A stretch of DNA of 42,801 nucleotides, from positions 1 through 42,801 of the forward strand of contig DATBEY010000363.1 of NCBI GenBank assembly GCA_036558765.1, read 5' to 3'. Under the pieces are notes generated by a model that saw only the letters and a list, made by a program, of their open reading frames with translations, ran no database searches and was not told the origin of the DNA. A program made the position numbers and the translations under genes. The stretch is from Candidatus Binatia bacterium. Its GTDB lineage: Bacteria > Desulfobacterota > Binatia > UBA9968. Positions 16,820-24,169 of the stretch are shown in pieces; the first letter of the stretch is position 1, and each line of letters starts with the position of its first letter.

Positions 16820-17263
16820 ATGGCCAACATGCAGATTCTGGTGTTGAATGGTCCCAATCTTAATCTGCTCGGCAAGCGGCAGCCGGAGATTTACGGCAGC
16901 CTGAGTCTTTCGGATATCGAGCAGCAAGTGCGCGCGCTGGCCAACGAGCTTGGCGTCGAAATCGAATTTCGCCAGTCAAACAGCGAGGCCGAACTGATCG
17001 ATTGGATCCATGATAGTGCCGGCAAATTCGGCGCTCTGGTCATCAACCCGGCAGCTTACACGCATACCAGCCTGGCATTGCGAGACGCCATTTCGGCGGT
17101 GGGAATTCCGACAGTGGAGATTCACATTTCCAATATTCACAAACGCGAGCCGTTCCGGCATCATTCCTACATCGCGGAAGTCGCGGTCGGTCAGATCGCC
17201 GGCTTCGGCGCGACGAGTTATCTTTTGGGGCTACGCGCCGCGGTCCAGTTACTCCAAAAATAA
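16820..17263 (+). CDS. aroQ: Type II 3-dehydroquinate dehydratase
   Basis: 147 aa. [31 protein letters not shown] and EIHISN motifs. Confidence 0.95.
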
Positions 17264-17980
17264 CGAACCGACTTCGAATCCTTTTCCTCGCATTTCATCG
17301 ATCACTCTTTGCCGCTCGTTTTCGATTTGGCCGATGCGCGCTCTTAGATCGCTCAGCTCTCTTTGTTTTTCTGTATAAGCGGGCGGCGCATCGAGCGAAA
17401 ACTGTGGAGATGTCGCCGCGCTGCCTGTCGGCAGTCCTTGCGCTCTATTTTGAGCATCGCGCAAGCGAGACAACAAGTCATCTTGCTGGCCTTTGAAGGC
17501 TTCCTGGGTGGTAAAGAAACTTGGGTCGGGACCCTGGTTACCTCGTGTGATGAGTGAATAGCGGTCCCGCAGTTCTTTCAACTGTGCAGTCAAGTTTTTT
17601 AGCCTGTCCTCGTACGCCTTTGCTTCTGCGGCGCGCTGTTTAGCTTGTTGTTGCTCAACCGAAACCGTAGCGGGCGGTTTAGCCTGCGGCGGTTGGACCG
17701 CTGTCGGGGCAGGTTCCGGCGGGTTTTTACCGGGACGATCATCTAATGACAGAGGACGGGAACTGGCACTCTCGGAAGCTTCAGCGCGGCGGATCGTTTG
17801 AATTTGATCCTTGCTGATGGCGAGTTCGCCGCCCAGGCCAGAAAATTTGATCATGCTCCCTTCCTCGCGATAGTTCTGCACCGTCAGTTGCCGACCATTC
17901 TTTAAAACCACAACGTACTGTGCGTCCGCGATGGCGAAACCCATGGAGAGCAACGCTACGACCAGGGTAACCTTCAACAT
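17249..17980 (-). CDS. Secreted coiled-coil protein, function unknown
   Basis: I chose the ATG at 17980 ([20 protein letters not shown] signal peptide). The ORF-track start 18208 would overlap the divergent VWA gene. Layout is a small beta domain, a Pro/Gln-rich linker, then a long heptad-like C-terminus. The 3' end overlaps aroQ convergently by 15 nt. Confidence 0.6.
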
Positions 17981-18086
17981 GGGACGGATTATAGCACGAC
18001 GCTCGCTATTGAGGTATGCAGCCTGGACGGACTCTTTTATGCCCGGAGCAATCGTGTTAGCGTCGGCATGTCGGAGAGGTTGATTT

Positions 18087-19334
18087 ATGAACCTGTTTCG
18101 ATGTGCGCTTGTTAGTGCTTTGTTCTTTTGCATTGTTGGTTTAGACCCCGTTGCTTCGGCACAACCCAAAGTACAGATTCTTTCGCCCAAAAACGGCACG
18201 CAGATCACCCAGGATCAAAAATCAGTTTTGGTCAGCGGCAAGGTTGCGCGAGAGGCAGGGCGATCGGGAAATGTCGACATCTTTTTAGTGATCGACGTTT
18301 CAGGGAGCACTGCACTTTATTCCGGGGCGGACCTAGGCGATGCCGATCAACCTCCGGAAAGCACAGGTTTTCCGACGCCGCAAATCAGCATTGGCGGCTT
18401 CGGCCTCGGCGGACCGCCGATACGCAATCCCAGAAATTCCGTTCTTGCCGCAGAGGTTGCGGCTGCACGCCGCCTGCTGCTTCAACTCAATCACGAGACG
18501 ACACGGGTCGGCGTCTTGAGCTTCAGCGACCGCGCCAATTTACTCCAGCCGCTCACCCATGATTTCGAAATAGTTCGAAAAGTTTTGGCCGACGTGCTGC
18601 GCTCGGGTTCTTACGGCGGTACGAATATGGTCGAAGCGATACGGCTAGCCATCAGTGAGTTGATGGGATTCGGCACCAGCGAAAGGCGCACCGACGCCAT
18701 CAAAGTGCAATTCCTTCTCACCGATGGGTTTCCAACTCTGCCGATCGGTGAAAGCAAGAGAATGACACCGGAGGATGTCGCGCTGACGATCAACGCGGCA
18801 CGGTTGGCCGGCAAAGCGGGCATCAAGGTCCACGTCTTCGCTCTTGGGGAGGAAGCGCTCTCTTATCCGCGCGCCGCGATCGGTATTGCCAAAGAAAGCG
18901 GCGGCACTTATACGCCGGTGGTGCGGCCGGCGGATGCGCTGGCGGTGCTCGAAAACATCTCGGTGGTCGGTGTTGATTACGTGCAGGTCATCAACCAGAC
19001 GATCGGGCAGAAGGCGACACAATTACGGTTAGCGGCCGACGGGTTTTTTTCCTCGGCAGTGCCCGTGACCGAAGGAAAAAATCAAATCGATGTCTTGGCG
19101 CGGGCGAGTGACGGTGGCAATGCTCGTGAATCGATCACGATTTATTATCAGCCCGGCACACAAAAGTCCCTGGACTTGGAAGTCTTCCTAGAAAAGGAAA
19201 AGAATCTCCAACTCGAAGTAAACCGGCTCGGCAAAAGTCCGGCAGAAATTCAGCGGGAAGTCGAGCGCAATCGTGAAGATAGTCTGAGCAAGCCGCAGCA
19301 GCTGCCGCCACCGACGGAAGGACCGGCGCGATGA
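18087..19334 (+). CDS. Secreted von Willebrand factor type A (VWA) domain protein
   Basis: 415 aa. Signal peptide, and a complete MIDAS (DVSGS ... GGTNM ... LLTDG). C-terminal beta-sandwich-like region plus a charged coiled tail. Confidence 0.8.
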   Translation: MNLFRCALVSALFFCIVGLDPVASAQPKVQILSPKNGTQITQDQKSVLVSGKVAREAGRSGNVDIFLVIDVSGSTALYSGADLGDADQPPESTGFPTPQISIGGFGLGGPPIRNPRNSVLAAEVAAARRLLLQLNHETTRVGVLSFSDRANLLQPLTHDFEIVRKVLADVLRSGSYGGTNMVEAIRLAISELMGFGTSERRTDAIKVQFLLTDGFPTLPIGESKRMTPEDVALTINAARLAGKAGIKVHVFALGEEALSYPRAAIGIAKESGGTYTPVVRPADALAVLENISVVGVDYVQVINQTIGQKATQLRLAADGFFSSAVPVTEGKNQIDVLARASDGGNARESITIYYQPGTQKSLDLEVFLEKEKNLQLEVNRLGKSPAEIQREVERNREDSLSKPQQLPPPTEGPAR

Positions 19335-19364: not shown

Positions 19365-19790
19365 CTAGCGGGGTTTTCTTTCCGCTTCAGCCGCGATGGC
19401 GATTTCAGAGGCGCCGGCGCGTTTGATCATCGACATTACCTTGACGGTGTCGCCCAGCAGCACATCTTTGTCGCCACGAAGAATCACGGTCTTGTCAGCG
19501 CGAGCGTTGAGCGCATCCTGAAGGACTTTTTCCAGATTCTCTTCCTTGACGATTTTCTGGTCGACATAAATTTCGTGTTTCGGGGTGATGGTCACCGTGG
19601 TGCCGCGCGATTCTGACTGAGTCGCAACGGCTTTCGGCAAGTTCACTTTCCCGCCGGACTCAATCATCGCCGAACTGGTGATCATGAAGATAATCAGCAG
19701 CACGAGGAAAATATCCGTCAATGGAGTGATATTTATCTCAGCGACGATATCGGAATTGTCTTCGTTTCCACCCATCGGGGTGATAGCCAT
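19365..19790 (-). CDS. exbD: Biopolymer transport protein ExbD/TolR
   Basis: 141 aa. INITPLTDIFLVLLIIFM TM motif with the conserved Asp, and a periplasmic domain. Confidence 0.9.
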   Translation of the reverse strand: MAITPMGGNEDNSDIVAEINITPLTDIFLVLLIIFMITSSAMIESGGKVNLPKAVATQSESRGTTVTITPKHEIYVDQKIVKEENLEKVLQDALNARADKTVILRGDKDVLLGDTVKVMSMIKRAGASEIAIAAEAERKPR

Positions 19791-19797
19791 GAAATCC

Positions 19798-20424
19798 TCA
19801 CGCGCTCATGAGCTGGACAATTTTAGCGGCTTGGATGCGGAACAGGCCCGTAAGCATTGAGATGCGGGTTTGGAAATAGTTATAAAAAATGACCGCGATG
19901 ATCGCGACGCCGAGACCTAATGCGGTCGCCACCAAAGCTTCGGAGATGCCGGCAGCGACGACGGCAAACCCGCCGGTTCCGGCGATCGCCATACTTTCGA
20001 AGGATTTAATAATTCCCACCACCGTGCCGAGCAGACCGATAAAGGGAGCGCTGCTTGCGACTGTGCCTAGGATCCACAGATTTTTCTTCAATTTCTGGGT
20101 TTCTTCGAAGAGCGCTTCGCTGACGATGCTGTTGGCGGCTTCCAGGCGCGTGCTGCTTTCCCGTTCCAGGATGTTCAAAAAAATTCTGGCGACGGGCCAA
20201 TTCGAGTTTTGTTTACAAATGGCAATCGCCAAATCGCGCTGCCCTTTTTTGACCGGTTCGAGAATGGATTCAGTGACTCGAAGCGTAATCGCACCGAGAT
20301 TTCTAAGCGACCAGAGACGCTCAAACACCACGGTCAAGCTGATGATCGACAGGAGAATCAACGGGTAGGTCGCTATGGCGCCTTTATGGATAATGTCGAT
20401 GAGATCGAGACCTTGCGGCTGCAT
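19798..20424 (-). CDS. exbB: MotA/TolQ/ExbB proton-channel protein
   Basis: 208 aa with three TM segments and the conserved APFIGLLGTVVGI motif. 7 nt upstream of exbD. Confidence 0.9.
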   Translation of the reverse strand: MQPQGLDLIDIIHKGAIATYPLILLSIISLTVVFERLWSLRNLGAITLRVTESILEPVKKGQRDLAIAICKQNSNWPVARIFLNILERESSTRLEAANSIVSEALFEETQKLKKNLWILGTVASSAPFIGLLGTVVGIIKSFESMAIAGTGGFAVVAAGISEALVATALGLGVAIIAVIFYNYFQTRISMLTGLFRIQAAKIVQLMSA

Positions 20425-20516: not shown

Positions 20517-21548
20517 CTAGCCGCGCACACCGATGGTGACGGTAAATTGCATGCGCAGAGGGGTGTTGGCCAGGTCTTTCAATGTCTCAGGGATCGGCGG
20601 GAATGGTGATGCGCGCTTCATCGCCTCGACCGCGCTGGCATTCAGTCTCGCGTCAGTGGACTCCAGCACTTCCGAGCGCATGAGTCTACCCGCTTTGTCG
20701 AGTGTGAATAAGATGGCGACTTTTTGCACGCCGTTGACACCGTCGGGATACTTCCACACGGACTCCACTCGTTTCTTGAGCTGGCTAAGATATTGGTTGT
20801 AATCAGCGCTCGATAAGCCCCTCAGTCCGGTCGTGCTGCCGCCGCCACTGCCGGTTCCCGTACCCCCGCCGGTTACGCCTGTGCCGGTAGTACTGCCGCC
20901 GGGGACGCCATACGGGCCTAATCCCGTTCCTGTTCCTTTGAGAGCGCCGGGGATCTGCGTGCCCTCCTTGAGCGCCTTGATGCCGGGACCTTCTCCCGCG
21001 CCTTTTAGTGCTGCCAGGGATTGCTGCTGACGGAGATCCAGATCAGCAGTATTGCTGGGAAGATTTGTCGGACTGTCCTTGGTAGGCAAGCGCACCAATG
21101 AGTCCGGTGACGTTTCCTTTGTATTTACCGATTCGGCGCGCGAATCTGAAGCCAAGATCTTTGGCGCAGGCAAAGGCGCTGGCGTCGGAGGCGGCGCGGT
21201 TTCAGCGGGAGTACTGCTTGGAACCGAAGTTTCAATCGAGCCTTTATCCAATCTGCCGGTCCGCTGCGCGGGCGCTGTCGGAGTTCCCAGTTTTGGCATC
21301 GTGCGCGGCCCGCCGGGACCACTGCCTGGACCGATACTCTTGTTCCGGGATGTCCCTTCTCTTGGTTCCAGTAGCTGCACAGAAATCGGCGTTTGCTCAG
21401 GTTGTGCTATCGGCAACATCGCCGCGCGCAAGGCGAGCAATGCAAGCATCGAGTGAAACAACACCGAGGGGATGAGAAAAGGACTGCGGAATAGCGAGAG
21501 GACGCTAAAGTCTTCCCAATCAGCGGTGATCTGCTGCATTTTCGTCAC
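20517..21548 (-). CDS. TonB/TolA-family energy-transducer protein (C-terminal TonB domain)
   Basis: 343 aa. Layout is an N-terminal TM, a Pro-rich segment (PAETAPPPTPAPLPAPK), a Gly/Thr-rich segment, then a C-terminal TonB_C-like domain (VWKYPDG..VAILFTLDKAGRL..ASPFPPIP). Confidence 0.8.
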   Translation of the reverse strand: MTKMQQITADWEDFSVLSLFRSPFLIPSVLFHSMLALLALRAAMLPIAQPEQTPISVQLLEPREGTSRNKSIGPGSGPGGPRTMPKLGTPTAPAQRTGRLDKGSIETSVPSSTPAETAPPPTPAPLPAPKILASDSRAESVNTKETSPDSLVRLPTKDSPTNLPSNTADLDLRQQQSLAALKGAGEGPGIKALKEGTQIPGALKGTGTGLGPYGVPGGSTTGTGVTGGGTGTGSGGGSTTGLRGLSSADYNQYLSQLKKRVESVWKYPDGVNGVQKVAILFTLDKAGRLMRSEVLESTDARLNASAVEAMKRASPFPPIPETLKDLANTPLRMQFTVTIGVRG

Positions 21549-22689
21549 CGGGAAGAGAAATTTTCGTCAATTCGGTCATCGCTGCGGGGAGCTCTTCTTT
21601 CTTTGAGAGTATTTCGAGCCCGACGGCACTGACATCGCGCCGAACGAGGCGACCATTTTCATAATACGTCCATAAGTCCGCGACGCCGTCACCGTTGAGA
21701 TCGCGCTCTTCTTTGAGAACGACCTCGCCATCTTTGCTGGCGTCATAATAAGTCCACAGATCAGGCCGGCCAGCGCCGCGCGTGTCTTTCTCGAGCTTGG
21801 CGAGTCGGCCATTCTGATAAATGGCGCGATAAGTGATACTTCCCAAGCCGGCCTCGTCACGCTCTTCGCGAATAATTTTGTCGTTATCGTAGAAATATAC
21901 TGTATCGGGTCTGCCGAGTTGCTTAGTATCGACCTCACGGCGAACCATTTTGCCTTCTTTGAAGTAGCTCCAGGTATCGACACGGCCGTCGCCTTTTGTT
22001 GACTCTTCTTGACGAATAATTTCACCCGGCTTTTGTGGATTATAATAAATCCACAAATCTGCGACGCCATCGCCGTTCAAGTCGCGCACTTCAACGTTTT
22101 TAAATGGACTCGGCGGTGTTTGGGCGACGGCCGGTTTGCCCAGGGACGCGATGCTAGTGGTCTCGCCGGGGAGTTGCTTGGTGGATGATGGTTGTGCGGA
22201 GTCTCGTGGCTGAGCCGTAGGGTTTGAAACCGGTTGCACGGGCGGCTCGGTTTTGGCGCTGCTATCACCGGCTTGGGCAATTTGATTTTCCAAGCCGCGC
22301 TGCCGTGCCAATTCTTGGTCGATGGCGGCTTCTAGCTGCTGATCTTTTTTCTGCTCTGTAGAGATCTGATTGTTAATCTGACCGTAATAGGAGTCCGCCG
22401 TGACCAACCCGGTGATCAGACCAATGATCAAGCCGCCGCCCGCTCCATAGGGTCCGGCGAGGGACCCGCCCATCGCGATGCCTTCCATCGCCTTATTCCA
22501 GGCGTGCTGCCAGCGCTGCGAGCCGGTAATGTCAGGATTTTGAGGCGCGGACGCAGAGGTATTCACGGGATTGCCAGGATTGGTAGGATTTTGCCCGGGG
22601 GACACAGGCGGAGGCTGCGTCGCCATGGGATCGCACGCGTAGAGCACGACAATGTGCAGTAGCAGCAAGAGGCTGAATCGCGCTCTCAT
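21520..22689 (-). CDS. Putative lipoprotein: glycine-zipper + coiled coil + DxNGDG/WxYY repeat domain
   Basis: 389 aa. Signal peptide with a possible lipobox LYAC and a Pro/Asn-rich linker. Glycine zipper GGSLAGPYGAGGGLIIGLITGL, then coiled coil (QISTEQKKDQQLEAAIDQELARQRGLENQIAQ). C-terminal part has about 6-7 repeats such as RDLNGDGVADLWTYYENGRLVRRD. The 3' end overlaps the tonB-like start by 29 nt. Confidence 0.65.
   Translation of the reverse strand: MRARFSLLLLLHIVVLYACDPMATQPPPVSPGQNPTNPGNPVNTSASAPQNPDITGSQRWQHAWNKAMEGIAMGGSLAGPYGAGGGLIIGLITGLVTADSYYGQINNQISTEQKKDQQLEAAIDQELARQRGLENQIAQAGDSSAKTEPPVQPVSNPTAQPRDSAQPSSTKQLPGETTSIASLGKPAVAQTPPSPFKNVEVRDLNGDGVADLWIYYNPQKPGEIIRQEESTKGDGRVDTWSYFKEGKMVRREVDTKQLGRPDTVYFYDNDKIIREERDEAGLGSITYRAIYQNGRLAKLEKDTRGAGRPDLWTYYDASKDGEVVLKEERDLNGDGVADLWTYYENGRLVRRDVSAVGLEILSKKEELPAAMTELTKISLPGDENAADHR
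21628..22104 (-). repeat. Protein-level tandem repeats (about 24 aa) within the 389-aa lipoprotein
   Basis: By eye, residues about 196-354 show a recurring D-x-x-G-D/x-G-x-x-D-x-W-x-Y-Y/F-x-x-G-x-h-x-R-x-E unit. Confidence 0.6.
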
Positions 22690-22712: not shown

Positions 22713-23930
22713 TTACTTTATTTGCCGGTCCAAAACCAATCCGGAAACAGCGTTGCTCGCGGGGCTCTGTATCGCCGTTGTGGCATCGAGAGCGCTTTTG
22801 AGCTCTTCCTCGATAGTCCTAAATGGCTTGGAAACCCTTGGCGGCTCGAGATTATCCAAAGTCTCTTGACCAACGATCTGGCCGCCTTTGAAAATGTAGC
22901 GAGCGGTAATTTTTCCCTGATAATTCTGATCTTCGAGCTGTTCAATTCGCTCGCCGTTTTGAAAATTTACCCAGACATCGACACGACGATCACCATTGGT
23001 ATCCGCCTCTTGGGCAACCAACTGCCCTTTATCGTAAATGGTTCTAAAATCAAGGACGCCCGTGCTCTTCGTATCACGCTCTTCGCGCACGAGTTGATTA
23101 TCCTCAAAGTAGTAAACTGTATCCCATTTGCCGGTGCCTTTTGTGTCGCGCAGCCGCTTGGTCACGCGGCCAACGGAAAAGAATTCAATCATATCCATAC
23201 GGCCGCGGTGCGCGGTATCCTCCTCTCGGCGGATGACCTCGTCGCCCCGGAAGTAAACGACTCGGCTAACTTTGCCGTCGCCTTGGAGATCCTCCTCCTG
23301 TTTGATCAAGCGACCATCCTGGTAATAGCCCCAAAGGTCGATTTTGCCGGTATGTTTGCGATCGACCTCTTTACGCACCAATTGGCCGTTCTCAAAGTAA
23401 GAGAAAGTATCGGGCTTGCCGTCTCCATTGCTGCTTTCTTCAATCCGGACAACCTTGCCATCCTTGTAAAAAACCTGCCGCTGTCCAGTACTCGCGGTAT
23501 TCCCCGACTCCTCGCTCCGCACCGGTTGCCCATTCTCGTAATATACCCACAAAGTCGGCTGGCCCGAATGGTTTGTATCTTGACCTTTCCGCTCAACTTC
23601 GCCTTTGCCGTTTAGGTAGAGCCAAGTGTCGATCTGCCCGTCATTTTTACTGGCGATTTCTTGACGCACCGGTTTTCCCGCTTCGTAGTAGGTGATCGTA
23701 TCGGATTTGCCGTCAAAATTGACGTCTTGTTCGAGCCGCTGGATTTGTCCATTGGAATCATAATAGATCCAGCGGTCCATTTTGCCATCGCCATTGGTAT
23801 CCTGCTCTTGACGCGTCACGCTGCCACGTTCGTCGTAGTAAAAACTTGCGATCGGCTGCTGCGAATAGCCGGGCGCCGCTGCCGCGAGCAGCAGCAGCGT
23901 GGTCAAGCAGCAAATACCGGATTGGGTCAT
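22713..23930 (-). CDS. Secreted tandem-repeat protein (about 14 x 24-aa DxNGDG / WxYYxNG repeats)
   Basis: 405 aa. Signal peptide CCLTTLLLLAAAAPGYSQQ. Almost the whole mature protein is repeats such as DTNGDGKMDRWIYYDSNGQIQRLEQ and SNGDGKPDTFSYFENGQLVRKEV. Confidence 0.7.
   Translation of the reverse strand: MTQSGICCLTTLLLLAAAAPGYSQQPIASFYYDERGSVTRQEQDTNGDGKMDRWIYYDSNGQIQRLEQDVNFDGKSDTITYYEAGKPVRQEIASKNDGQIDTWLYLNGKGEVERKGQDTNHSGQPTLWVYYENGQPVRSEESGNTASTGQRQVFYKDGKVVRIEESSNGDGKPDTFSYFENGQLVRKEVDRKHTGKIDLWGYYQDGRLIKQEEDLQGDGKVSRVVYFRGDEVIRREEDTAHRGRMDMIEFFSVGRVTKRLRDTKGTGKWDTVYYFEDNQLVREERDTKSTGVLDFRTIYDKGQLVAQEADTNGDRRVDVWVNFQNGERIEQLEDQNYQGKITARYIFKGGQIVGQETLDNLEPPRVSKPFRTIEEELKSALDATTAIQSPASNAVSGLVLDRQIK
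22836..23846 (-). repeat. Protein-level tandem repeats (about 14 units of about 24 aa)
   Basis: Repeat boundaries were drawn by eye from the translation, residues about 29-365. Confidence 0.6.
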
Positions 23931-23965: not shown

Positions 23966-24169
23966 TTACGAGTTCGACTTATTTTTGGAGTCGTGCAGAG
24001 CTTGTGGATTATCGGCCGGAGTAGTCTCGCTATCATTGATCGCCTTCTTAAATCCGCGGATGGCTTCGCCGAGCGATTTGCCGAGCTCAGGAAGTTTGCT
24101 CGGGCCGAAGACCACGAGGGCCACGATAAAGATTACGATCAATTCTGGGGCGCCAAGACTGCCGAACAT
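23966..24169 (-). CDS. tatA: Twin-arginine translocase subunit TatA/E
   Basis: 67 aa. MFGSLGAPELIVIFIVALVVFGPSKLPELGKSLG is the canonical TatA TM plus amphipathic helix. SD GGAGGTG lies upstream. Confidence 0.92.
   Translation of the reverse strand: MFGSLGAPELIVIFIVALVVFGPSKLPELGKSLGEAIRGFKKAINDSETTPADNPQALHDSKNKSNS

Follow-up and report, generated by a model that had tools for sequence, protein, structure and literature searches.

What might an exported protein do that consists almost wholly of short tandem repeats and is encoded in one run with the genes of an inner-membrane motor? The question is raised by rep1, a gene for a 405-aa protein on contig DATBEY010000363.1 of Candidatus Binatia bacterium (assembly GCA_036558765.1), of which a stretch of 42,801 nucleotides, called the window below, was analysed. 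TonB and Tol systems are the textbook carriers of inner-membrane energy to the outer membrane of Gram-negative bacteria, and their parts lists are held to be nearly complete. The reading that we prefer, with a probability of roughly 0.6, is that the rep1 protein is a periplasmic ribbon that acts as a structural partner of a TonB/TolA-like transducer and its ExbB-ExbD motor.

Repeat array and predicted fold of rep1

The gene and the parts of its product lie in the window as follows.

22713..23930, minus strand: rep1, the whole gene; an open reading frame (ORF) for a 405-aa hairpin-repeat protein
23862..23930, minus strand: signal peptide, residues 1-23, with cleavage predicted from the sequence between GYS and QQP
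23802..23852, minus strand: half unit that opens the array, residues 27-43, ASFYYDERGSVTRQEQ, a hairpin with no loop before it
22860..23801, minus strand: thirteen full 24-residue units, residues 44-357, each made of a 9-residue loop and two strands joined by an NG turn
23700..23801, minus strand: units 1 and 2, the sole units whose loops have the full DxNxDGxxD
22776..22859, minus strand: linker and short C-terminal helix, residues 358-385, with the conserved P363, F370 and L377 (invariant columns)

The start of rep1 is preceded, at a distance of 8 nt, by an AGGA ribosome-binding site. The N-terminus of the protein has a hydrophobic core followed by a small-x-small site, which the orthologues keep as AHS, ANA, AFA or SVA before QQP, and rep1 is probably exported through this signal peptide. 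The mature protein is acidic, with a pI of 5.07 and a net charge of about -12.

The array comprises 13.5 units at residues 27-357, namely the half unit, which consists of a hairpin only, and then the thirteen full units. Residues 44-357 align in rows of 24 after just two one-residue shifts. For residues 27-357, lags 24, 48 and 72 gave a BLOSUM62 autocorrelation of 0.89, 0.88 and 0.68, respectively, while the best unrelated lag gave -0.52. The shuffled sequence gave -0.86 ± 0.12 at lag 24 (z = 14.3), and the observed value was reached by none of the 5000 shuffles at any lag. A hidden Markov model (HMM) of the unit was also built from the orthologous units (consensus DTNGDGKIDRWVYFKDGQLVRQEE) and run against the six-frame ORFs of the source genome. 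It matched 13 units in rep1 and 7 in rep2, the gene that follows, and had no match in the remaining 31,384 ORFs. A previous reading, made from the sequence only, had placed about fourteen tandem 24-residue units at 22836-23846. This span corresponds to residues 29-365 of rep1 and covers the array; the period of about 24 residues proved significant, and the count is corrected to 13.5 by the rows of 24.

The same sequence-only reading held that the units are conserved at the protein level only, and this was confirmed. Tandem Repeats Finder reports no repeat in the rep1 DNA, in which only stretches of 15-26 nt with 65-88% identity recur, mostly at a spacing of multiples of 72 nt. The tandem-repeat search and the comparison of these short stretches rule out a recent duplication or a DNA repeat as the origin of the array. 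Meanwhile, the frequency of the top residue in 48 orthologues is 0.62-0.86 per unit, and 0.81 in the leading half unit, compared with an identity of only about 30% between the units. As every unit is individually conserved in these orthologues, the array must be old. The same contrast between conservation within each unit and low identity between units argues for specific contacts along the whole ribbon and not for a mere spacer.

It should be noted that several metagenome versions of rep1 (ENA contig_12676; P0001, P0004 and P0007) carry frameshifts, which produce out-of-frame tails and split genes. These look like errors of long-read assembly.

The AlphaFold2 (AF2) model of rep1, based on a shallow alignment, has a mean pLDDT of 84.3 and a pTM of 0.69, and most of the array lies above 90. 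The model contains 27 strands in strict alternation, which form an up-and-down hairpin meander. Each modelled unit consists of a strand of 5-6 residues, the 2-residue N-G turn of the motif YYxNG, a strand of 6-7 residues and a 9-residue loop. The strands of the half unit are residues 28-32 and 38-43, and the only element predicted beyond the array is a helix near the C-terminus (residues 373-385).

The model was compared with the structures of the PDB using Foldseek, which returned only hairpin-repeat sheets. The top matches were Rhs/teneurin YD shells (E 1e-10 to 1e-7, TM 0.12-0.19, rmsd 31-37 Å); engineered single-layer OspA sheets reached a target-normalised TM of up to 0.46, and neither a propeller nor a MORN structure was present among the top 50 matches. 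Since the likeness is local and the TM scores are low, the building block appears to be of the YD/MORN type and the global shape to be without a solved counterpart. A beta-solenoid or a propeller had been suggested as the outcomes to look for in a structure model. The fold predicted for rep1 is neither of them, but a hairpin meander.

Linkage of rep1 to tonB-like, exbB and exbD genes

The genes around rep1 that matter for its role are all encoded on the same strand.

23966..24169, minus strand: tatA (Pfam TatA_B_E), 35 nt upstream of rep1
21520..22689, minus strand: rep2, an ORF for a 389-aa lipoprotein paralogue of rep1, with 7 unit-HMM matches
21631..22095, minus strand: repeat array of rep2, residues 199-353, 6.5 units by the unit HMM and AF2
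20517..21548, minus strand: TonB/TolA-like energy transducer (TonB_2 37.7 bits, NCBIfam tonB_Cterm 40.5 bits)
19798..20424, minus strand: exbB, a MotA/TolQ/ExbB proton channel (Pfam PF01618, 114 bits)
19365..19790, minus strand: exbD, an ORF that shares 72-95% identity with the orthologues located after exbB at related loci

In the sense of transcription, the order is tatA, rep1, rep2, TonB/TolA-like, exbB and exbD, with gaps of 35, 23, -29, 92 and 7 nt; the negative value is the overlap of the TonB-like ORF with the end of rep2. No convincing terminator was found between the genes from tatA to exbD. The TonB-like protein has an N-terminal membrane helix with S-x3-H, a Pro- and Gly/Thr-rich linker and a TonB_2 C-terminal domain, and it also matches tolA_full, weakly.

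Orthologues of rep1 were found in 21 of the 24 genomes of the genus and in three of the five sister-family genomes, and 11 genomes from a third family yielded none. Among 16 order-level genomes, three have both rep1 and this type of TonB-like protein and 13 have neither; as these genomes are relatives, the co-occurrence is not an independent statistical test. The order rep1-rep2-tonB-like-exbB-exbD is present in about 40 Binatia loci, and rep2 follows rep1 almost everywhere. The sister family has it rearranged to tonB-rep1-rep2, with exbD/exbB on the opposite strand.

Arrays of this kind were seen next to the same genes outside Binatia. A metagenome-assembled genome (MAG) of Nitrospinae has exbB-exbD-tonB-like and then an array of 14 units. 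In five Myxococcota MAGs, exbD and exbB are read in one direction and tonB-like and rep, in this order, in the other, with arrays of up to about 1100 aa. The Desulfosarcina MAG has a TonB-dependent receptor, the repeat protein, exbB, exbD and tonB in sequence. Adjacency to TonB_C, ExbB and ExbD genes, the mark by which a proposed TonB-system accessory protein would be recognised, holds for two families of Binatia and for Nitrospinae, Myxococcota and Desulfosarcina; rep2 is missing from the last three. Finally, a 525-aa metagenome representative (P0093) is a single chain in which a signal peptide and 11 units are fused to a TonB_2/TonB_C domain at residues 297-369 and to a tail resembling alpha/beta-hydrolases. 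In the Rosetta-stone sense, this natural fusion hints at cooperation of the ribbon with the TonB C-terminal domain.

A TonB link for all proteins with the repeat was considered and rejected, because short relatives are encoded elsewhere and the matches in Acidobacteria and Omnitrophota are without such neighbours. The unrelated contexts of the short relatives suggest that the repeat is a general envelope module and that the association with TonB belongs to the long arrays.

As for the other genes of the run, rep2 encodes a lipobox, a Pro-rich tether, glycine-rich helices and a long helix, a Pro-rich spacer and 6.5 units. Its AF2 model has helices at residues 56-74 and 82-142 and strands at residues 199-353 with pLDDT >90, and the array ends in a helix (residues 355-364) that resembles the C-terminal helix of rep1. 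Sixteen orthologues retain the lipobox L-x-[GA]-C, and in most of them the lipid-modified Cys is followed by Asp or Glu at +2. Under the E. coli rule, this is a signal for retention in the inner membrane, and anchoring of rep2 in the outer membrane is uncertain. The tatA gene stands beside rep1 in many, not all, Binatia loci and is probably merely a neighbour.

Just beyond exbD, genes for a secreted VWA protein and a coiled-coil protein (window 17249-19334) are near-universal in Binatia loci, the rearranged sister-family loci included. A distant rep2-like relative (P0015) adjoins VWA and OmpA genes.

A giant ribbon was observed in a Myxococcota MAG (L080:5659-9180, plus strand). It is an exported protein of about 1100 aa with about 44 units, the loops of which are almost all canonical. 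Its gene immediately follows that of a 380-aa TonB-like protein, with exbB/exbD opposite, and a GGDEF-EAL gene is next to it on the other strand.

Three contigs labelled Chloroflexota, Verrucomicrobia and Limnocylindrales (L031, L034 and L048) carry rep1 orthologues that are 64-72% identical. L031 has the full Binatia synteny, L048 its upstream part, and in the short L034 only tatA and rep1 are visible. All three are probably mis-binned Binatia contigs.

Loops of the array and relatives of the repeat

According to the sequence-only reading, each unit combines a calcium-type Asp/Gly loop with an aromatic hairpin. This design of the unit is supported, though not for each unit. The strict pattern D-x-[DN]-x-[DN]-G-x-x-[DE] is present in two of the 13 loops, DTNGDGKMD at residues 44-52 and DVNFDGKSD at residues 69-77, and both of these are invariant or almost so among the orthologues. 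Two further loops are nearly complete, one at residue 166 (Ser at position 1) and one at residue 310 (Arg for Gly6). The remaining nine have each lost two or more of their four ligand positions. The loops were also compared with EF-hands, in which helices flank a 12-residue loop; the rep1 loops are flanked by strands, and EF-hand_1 reaches only 11.3 bits, its cut-off being 25.4.

The unit-by-unit alignment of 16 orthologues indicated that the loop types are position-specific, each being conserved at its own place. Three loops, at residues 190, 262 and 286, read D-x-K-x-T-G-x-x-D throughout the genus, and their lysine may occupy the former cation site. The sister-family orthologues have D-x-N-x-D-G-x-x-D at the same three places, and at the sites taken by Lys, Thr, Arg or His in the genus, their proteins show the canonical DxNxDGxxD. 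Because the canonical loops are retained there, the ancestral array probably had calcium sites throughout, about half of which would have been replaced in this lineage, partly by basic side chains. Judged by their motifs, at most 2-4 of the 13 rep1 loops would be able to bind calcium, and the ribbon of this genus is probably largely calcium-independent. With the loop of integrin alpha and FG-GAP proteins (DxDxDGxxD) the rep1 loops share the nine residues, the ligands at positions 1, 3, 5 and 9 and the Gly at 6. However, the beta-propeller blade of those proteins is absent in the rep1 model, and only the two loops named above are complete.

The search for known families gave matches to rep1 that stay below the cut-offs. 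Pfam MORN_2 (PF07661) reached 28.8 bits against a gathering score of 29.6, with no single stretch passing and with the alignment confined to the hairpin half of the unit (profile positions 5-17); single rep1 units scored 11.5-11.6 bits in the genome search. The best match of a curated model was NCBIfam NF050087, the Lsa25.6 family adhesin, which falls on the repeat itself. It gave 61 bits in 6 stretches of rep1 and 39.6 bits in rep2, the cut-off of this equivalog model being 150. Neither DUF6802 (PF20615; cut-off 27 bits) nor RHS_repeat (PF05593) matched rep1 at E<1, and the DUF6802 search of the source genome left rep1 unmatched, its best result being an unrelated match of 11.8 bits. The FG-GAP, EF-hand and Dockerin models left mere traces at the rep1 loops, and the FG-GAP/FG-GAP_3 models match the calcium-type motif in rep2 too. 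A search of the PDB sequences with rep1 alone and with a 9-sequence profile gave no match at E<=10. As had been anticipated, no functionally characterised family takes the rep1 array cleanly.

The relatives of rep1 gave a different picture. A word-indexed protein search returned 92 matches, mostly unnamed, and several relatives carry the JGI label 'antitoxin component YwqK'. Among 1.84 billion representative proteins, the family numbers 3016 clusters when the limit is E<=1e-3 and 878 when it is E<=1e-10. A Pfam scan of 112 relatives gave matches to DUF6802 in 36, FG-GAP_3 in 14, EF-hand_5 in 6, MORN_2 in 4 and TonB_C in 3, and weak matches to RHS_repeat in two. The DUF6802 model (102 positions) covers two-unit stretches of the composite repeat in the relatives, for example in P0010 with 36.4 bits, and it matches the homologue of the Desulfosarcina operon with 31.1 bits, above the 27-bit cut-off. 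The composite unit is thus already modelled by Pfam as a family of unknown function, and the suggestion that it belongs to no named family has to be given up, although rep1 itself is not matched.

Membership in DUF6802 is uninformative on function. Our literature searches on DUF6802 found no mention of the family, and those on COG2849/YwqK/MORN variants together with TonB, and on Binatia together with TonB, returned nothing relevant; a linkage of the repeat to TonB was not found in the literature searched. The repeat is therefore catalogued (DUF6802, Lsa25.6, MORN_2-like) but uncharacterised, and rep1 is a divergent member that no model recognises. In the databases, this family of about 3000 clusters (50% identity) goes only by the labels of a DUF, a mis-transferred 'YwqK antitoxin' or a Leptospira 'adhesin'.

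The relation to MORN_2 was examined using true MORN_2 proteins of the same phylum, in which the repeat spacing is likewise 24 residues. For this, 48-column double-unit profiles were aligned by hhalign. The rep unit and MORN_2 aligned in the same register with a probability of 91.6% (E 8e-7), both sets of windows having been anchored on the aromatic motif, which favours a shared register; the reversed or column-shuffled controls gave at most 2.9%. The consensus is DTnGdGK.D.wvyF.nGqlVRqEE for the rep unit and yknGK.eGi.KeYYENG.L..E.N for MORN_2. These profiles point to a similarity at the superfamily level, in which the hairpin would be common to both units and the loop between the hairpins would differ. 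MORN_2 has the period, the register and the hairpin core YYxNGxLxxE of rep1. In contrast, its inter-hairpin segment is YKdGKxxG, in place of which rep1 has an acidic DxNGDGKxD loop (consensus E-E-D-T-N-G-D-G-K-x-D). The likening of the hairpin to MORN variants and YD repeats, made from the sequence in the first place, agrees with the hhalign result and with the YD shells at the top of the Foldseek matches.

Arrays of canonical MORN repeats, such as TbMORN1, likewise consist of tandem hairpins of about 23-24 residues that form one elongated twisted antiparallel sheet and little else (PMC7725318). The canonical unit has two 6-residue strands, a 5-residue loop, a 6-residue linker and the motifs GxG and YEGEW (PMC7725318), whereas the rep1 unit has a 2-residue hairpin turn and a 9-residue linker of the calcium type. 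The YD shells of Rhs and teneurin proteins have a similar hairpin motif (YxYDxxGRL, compared with YYxNGxLVR in rep1). However, rep1 has no Rhs core, plug or toxin domain and is far too short for a closed shell.

Readings of the role of rep1

How could such a ribbon serve an energy-transducing system? In the reading that we prefer, rep1 would be exported by the Sec route into the periplasm as a soluble protein, and 13.5 beta-hairpins would make up nearly all of its mature chain. The hairpins would hydrogen-bond into a single antiparallel meander with the tight turns along one edge and the 9-residue loops along the opposite one. The unit may have originated from a MORN_2-like hairpin, the inter-hairpin loop of which was exchanged for a DxNxDGxxD calcium site of the integrin/FG-GAP type. 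In relatives with most loops intact, calcium would probably stiffen the ribbon; rep1 would be stiffened by the stacking of its hairpins and by its few remaining calcium sites. The resulting rigid rod of about 12 nm could act as a spacer or as a docking platform or rail for the TonB-like protein and ExbB-ExbD, together with rep2, and rep1 would be expected to contact the TonB-like protein or rep2. Of this picture, the repeat, the fold prediction, the relations of the family and the linkage of the genes across lineages are shown, and the place in the periplasm, the binding of calcium and the contacts are inferred.

Several points weigh against this. All of the functional evidence comes from the gene neighbourhood, and the loci, being mostly those of related Binatia, are not independent. 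Lipoprotein relatives with 6-8 units occur in other contexts (RHH_3/LepA, VWA+OmpA). The signal peptide of rep1 is without the basic n-region that the orthologues possess. Finally, the length of about 12 nm and the shape, straight or superhelical, are extrapolated from the strand count and from MORN1, since nine repeats span about 80 Å in the crystal data of TbMORN1 (PMC7725318).

More tentatively, long ribbons with calcium loops might be an obligatory periplasmic subunit of a distinct class of TonB/TolA-like systems in at least four phyla (the Binatia lineage, Nitrospinota, Myxococcota and Desulfobacterota), that is, a rigid element or rail that spans the periplasm and passes the action of ExbB-ExbD to the outer membrane. 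If the ribbon is a true subunit, it would be a new structural element for TonB/Tol motors, and the Lsa25.6/DUF6802 repeat would gain a testable cellular role. The rep1 array may also be relevant to repeat-protein design, as a natural MORN-like single-sheet ribbon in which calcium sites appear to have been progressively exchanged for basic side chains.

Of the other readings, the one that fares best compares rep1 with TolB. In the Nitrospinae locus, the order exbB-exbD-tonB-like-rep parallels tolQ-tolR-tolA-tolB, and rep1 could by analogy be the adaptor of a third Tol/Ton-type system, in which the TolA-like domain would grip the N-terminus of rep1 by strand addition and rep1 would hold rep2, as in TolA-TolB-Pal. 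What the locus shares with TolB-Pal and TolQRA is a soluble periplasmic beta-protein, a lipoprotein and the TolQ/ExbB-, TolR/ExbD- and TolA/TonB-like trio, with soluble rep1 and lipoprotein rep2 resembling TolB and Pal. The mature N-terminus of rep1 is among its best-conserved parts (0.81). Moreover, the domain of the TonB-like protein scores about 40 bits on tonB_Cterm, as does the TolA of the genome, unlike the TonBs adjacent to receptors (75-83 bits), and there is the weak tolA_full match. However, this is pure analogy, as rep1 and rep2 have no homology to TolB or Pal in sequence or fold, and canonical TolQ and TolB are encoded elsewhere in the complete genomes of the genus and in other lineages, so that a canonical Tol-Pal coexists in the same genomes. 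Besides, rep2 is missing in three of the lineages, most of its orthologues carry the retention signal at +2, and the Desulfosarcina operon includes an ordinary TonB-dependent receptor. We regard this reading as unlikely.

The adhesin reading is improbable. It would make rep1 a surface-exposed protein like Leptospira Lsa25.6 (LIC13059) that binds external polymers or the host matrix. The match to NF050087 is the best among the curated models, binding of recombinant Lsa25.6 to laminin, plasminogen and fibrinogen has been shown in vitro (PMC7662565), and long acidic repeat ribbons are frequent among adhesins. Nevertheless, 61 bits are far under the cut-off of 150, and the name of Lsa25.6 is based on binding assays with refolded protein and not on a defined cellular role. 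Lsa25.6 has about 196 positions, and rep1 is twice as long, with a Sec leader only and without a lipobox, an outer-membrane anchor or a secretion-system tag. It is encoded in a TonB/ExbBD operon of a free-living soil bacterium, and inner-membrane motor genes are its conserved neighbours in five lineages.

Slightly less probable still is that rep1 is a periplasmic calcium buffer or sensor that stabilises the envelope and has no role in energy transduction. The loops of the integrin/FG-GAP type, the matches of EF-hand_5, FG-GAP and Dockerin at the loops of relatives and the acidity of the mature protein would suit such a role. Yet the array is strongly conserved in spite of the ligands lost from nine of the 13 loops, which argues that selection did not act mainly on calcium capacity, and the conserved TonB/ExbBD linkage would be left without explanation. 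That rep1 is a cytoplasmic antitoxin or immunity protein of the YwqK type (MORN_2, COG2849) is hardly credible: MORN_2 is its top Pfam match, the profiles are 91.6% similar and several relatives bear the YwqK name from JGI, but the score is under the gathering score and restricted to the hairpin half, the loops are unlike those of MORN_2, MORN_2 proteins are cytoplasmic whereas rep1 has a signal peptide, and the adjacent genes are envelope genes with no toxin gene among them. The adhesin, calcium-buffer and antitoxin readings all fit the gene context poorly, and the periplasmic ribbon working with the TonB-like protein and ExbB-ExbD remains the reading that we prefer.

The identity of the motor was considered separately. 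That the locus replaces Tol-Pal was rejected, since TolQ is encoded separately, next to TolB, in complete genomes of the genus. Separate TolQ/TolB genes are also present in four of five other genomes searched, and the Nitrospinae genome gave no TolB_N match. In the source assembly, which is 84.5% complete, no TolB and no second MotA/ExbB gene was found, and its Tol-Pal locus is probably in the missing ~15%. That the TonB-like protein of the locus is the sole TonB was rejected as well, as there are 5-8 TonB_C genes per genome and the best-scoring of them adjoin receptor Plug genes.

Meanwhile, in at least two genomes, G015 and the Myxococcota genome G042, TolQ and the ribbon-linked ExbB are the sole members of the MotA/ExbB family. 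G015 has three TonB-dependent receptor Plug genes, and it has TonB genes beside receptors without ExbBD of their own. These gene contents suggest that the ribbon-linked ExbB-ExbD may also be the housekeeping Ton motor, energising ordinary receptors.

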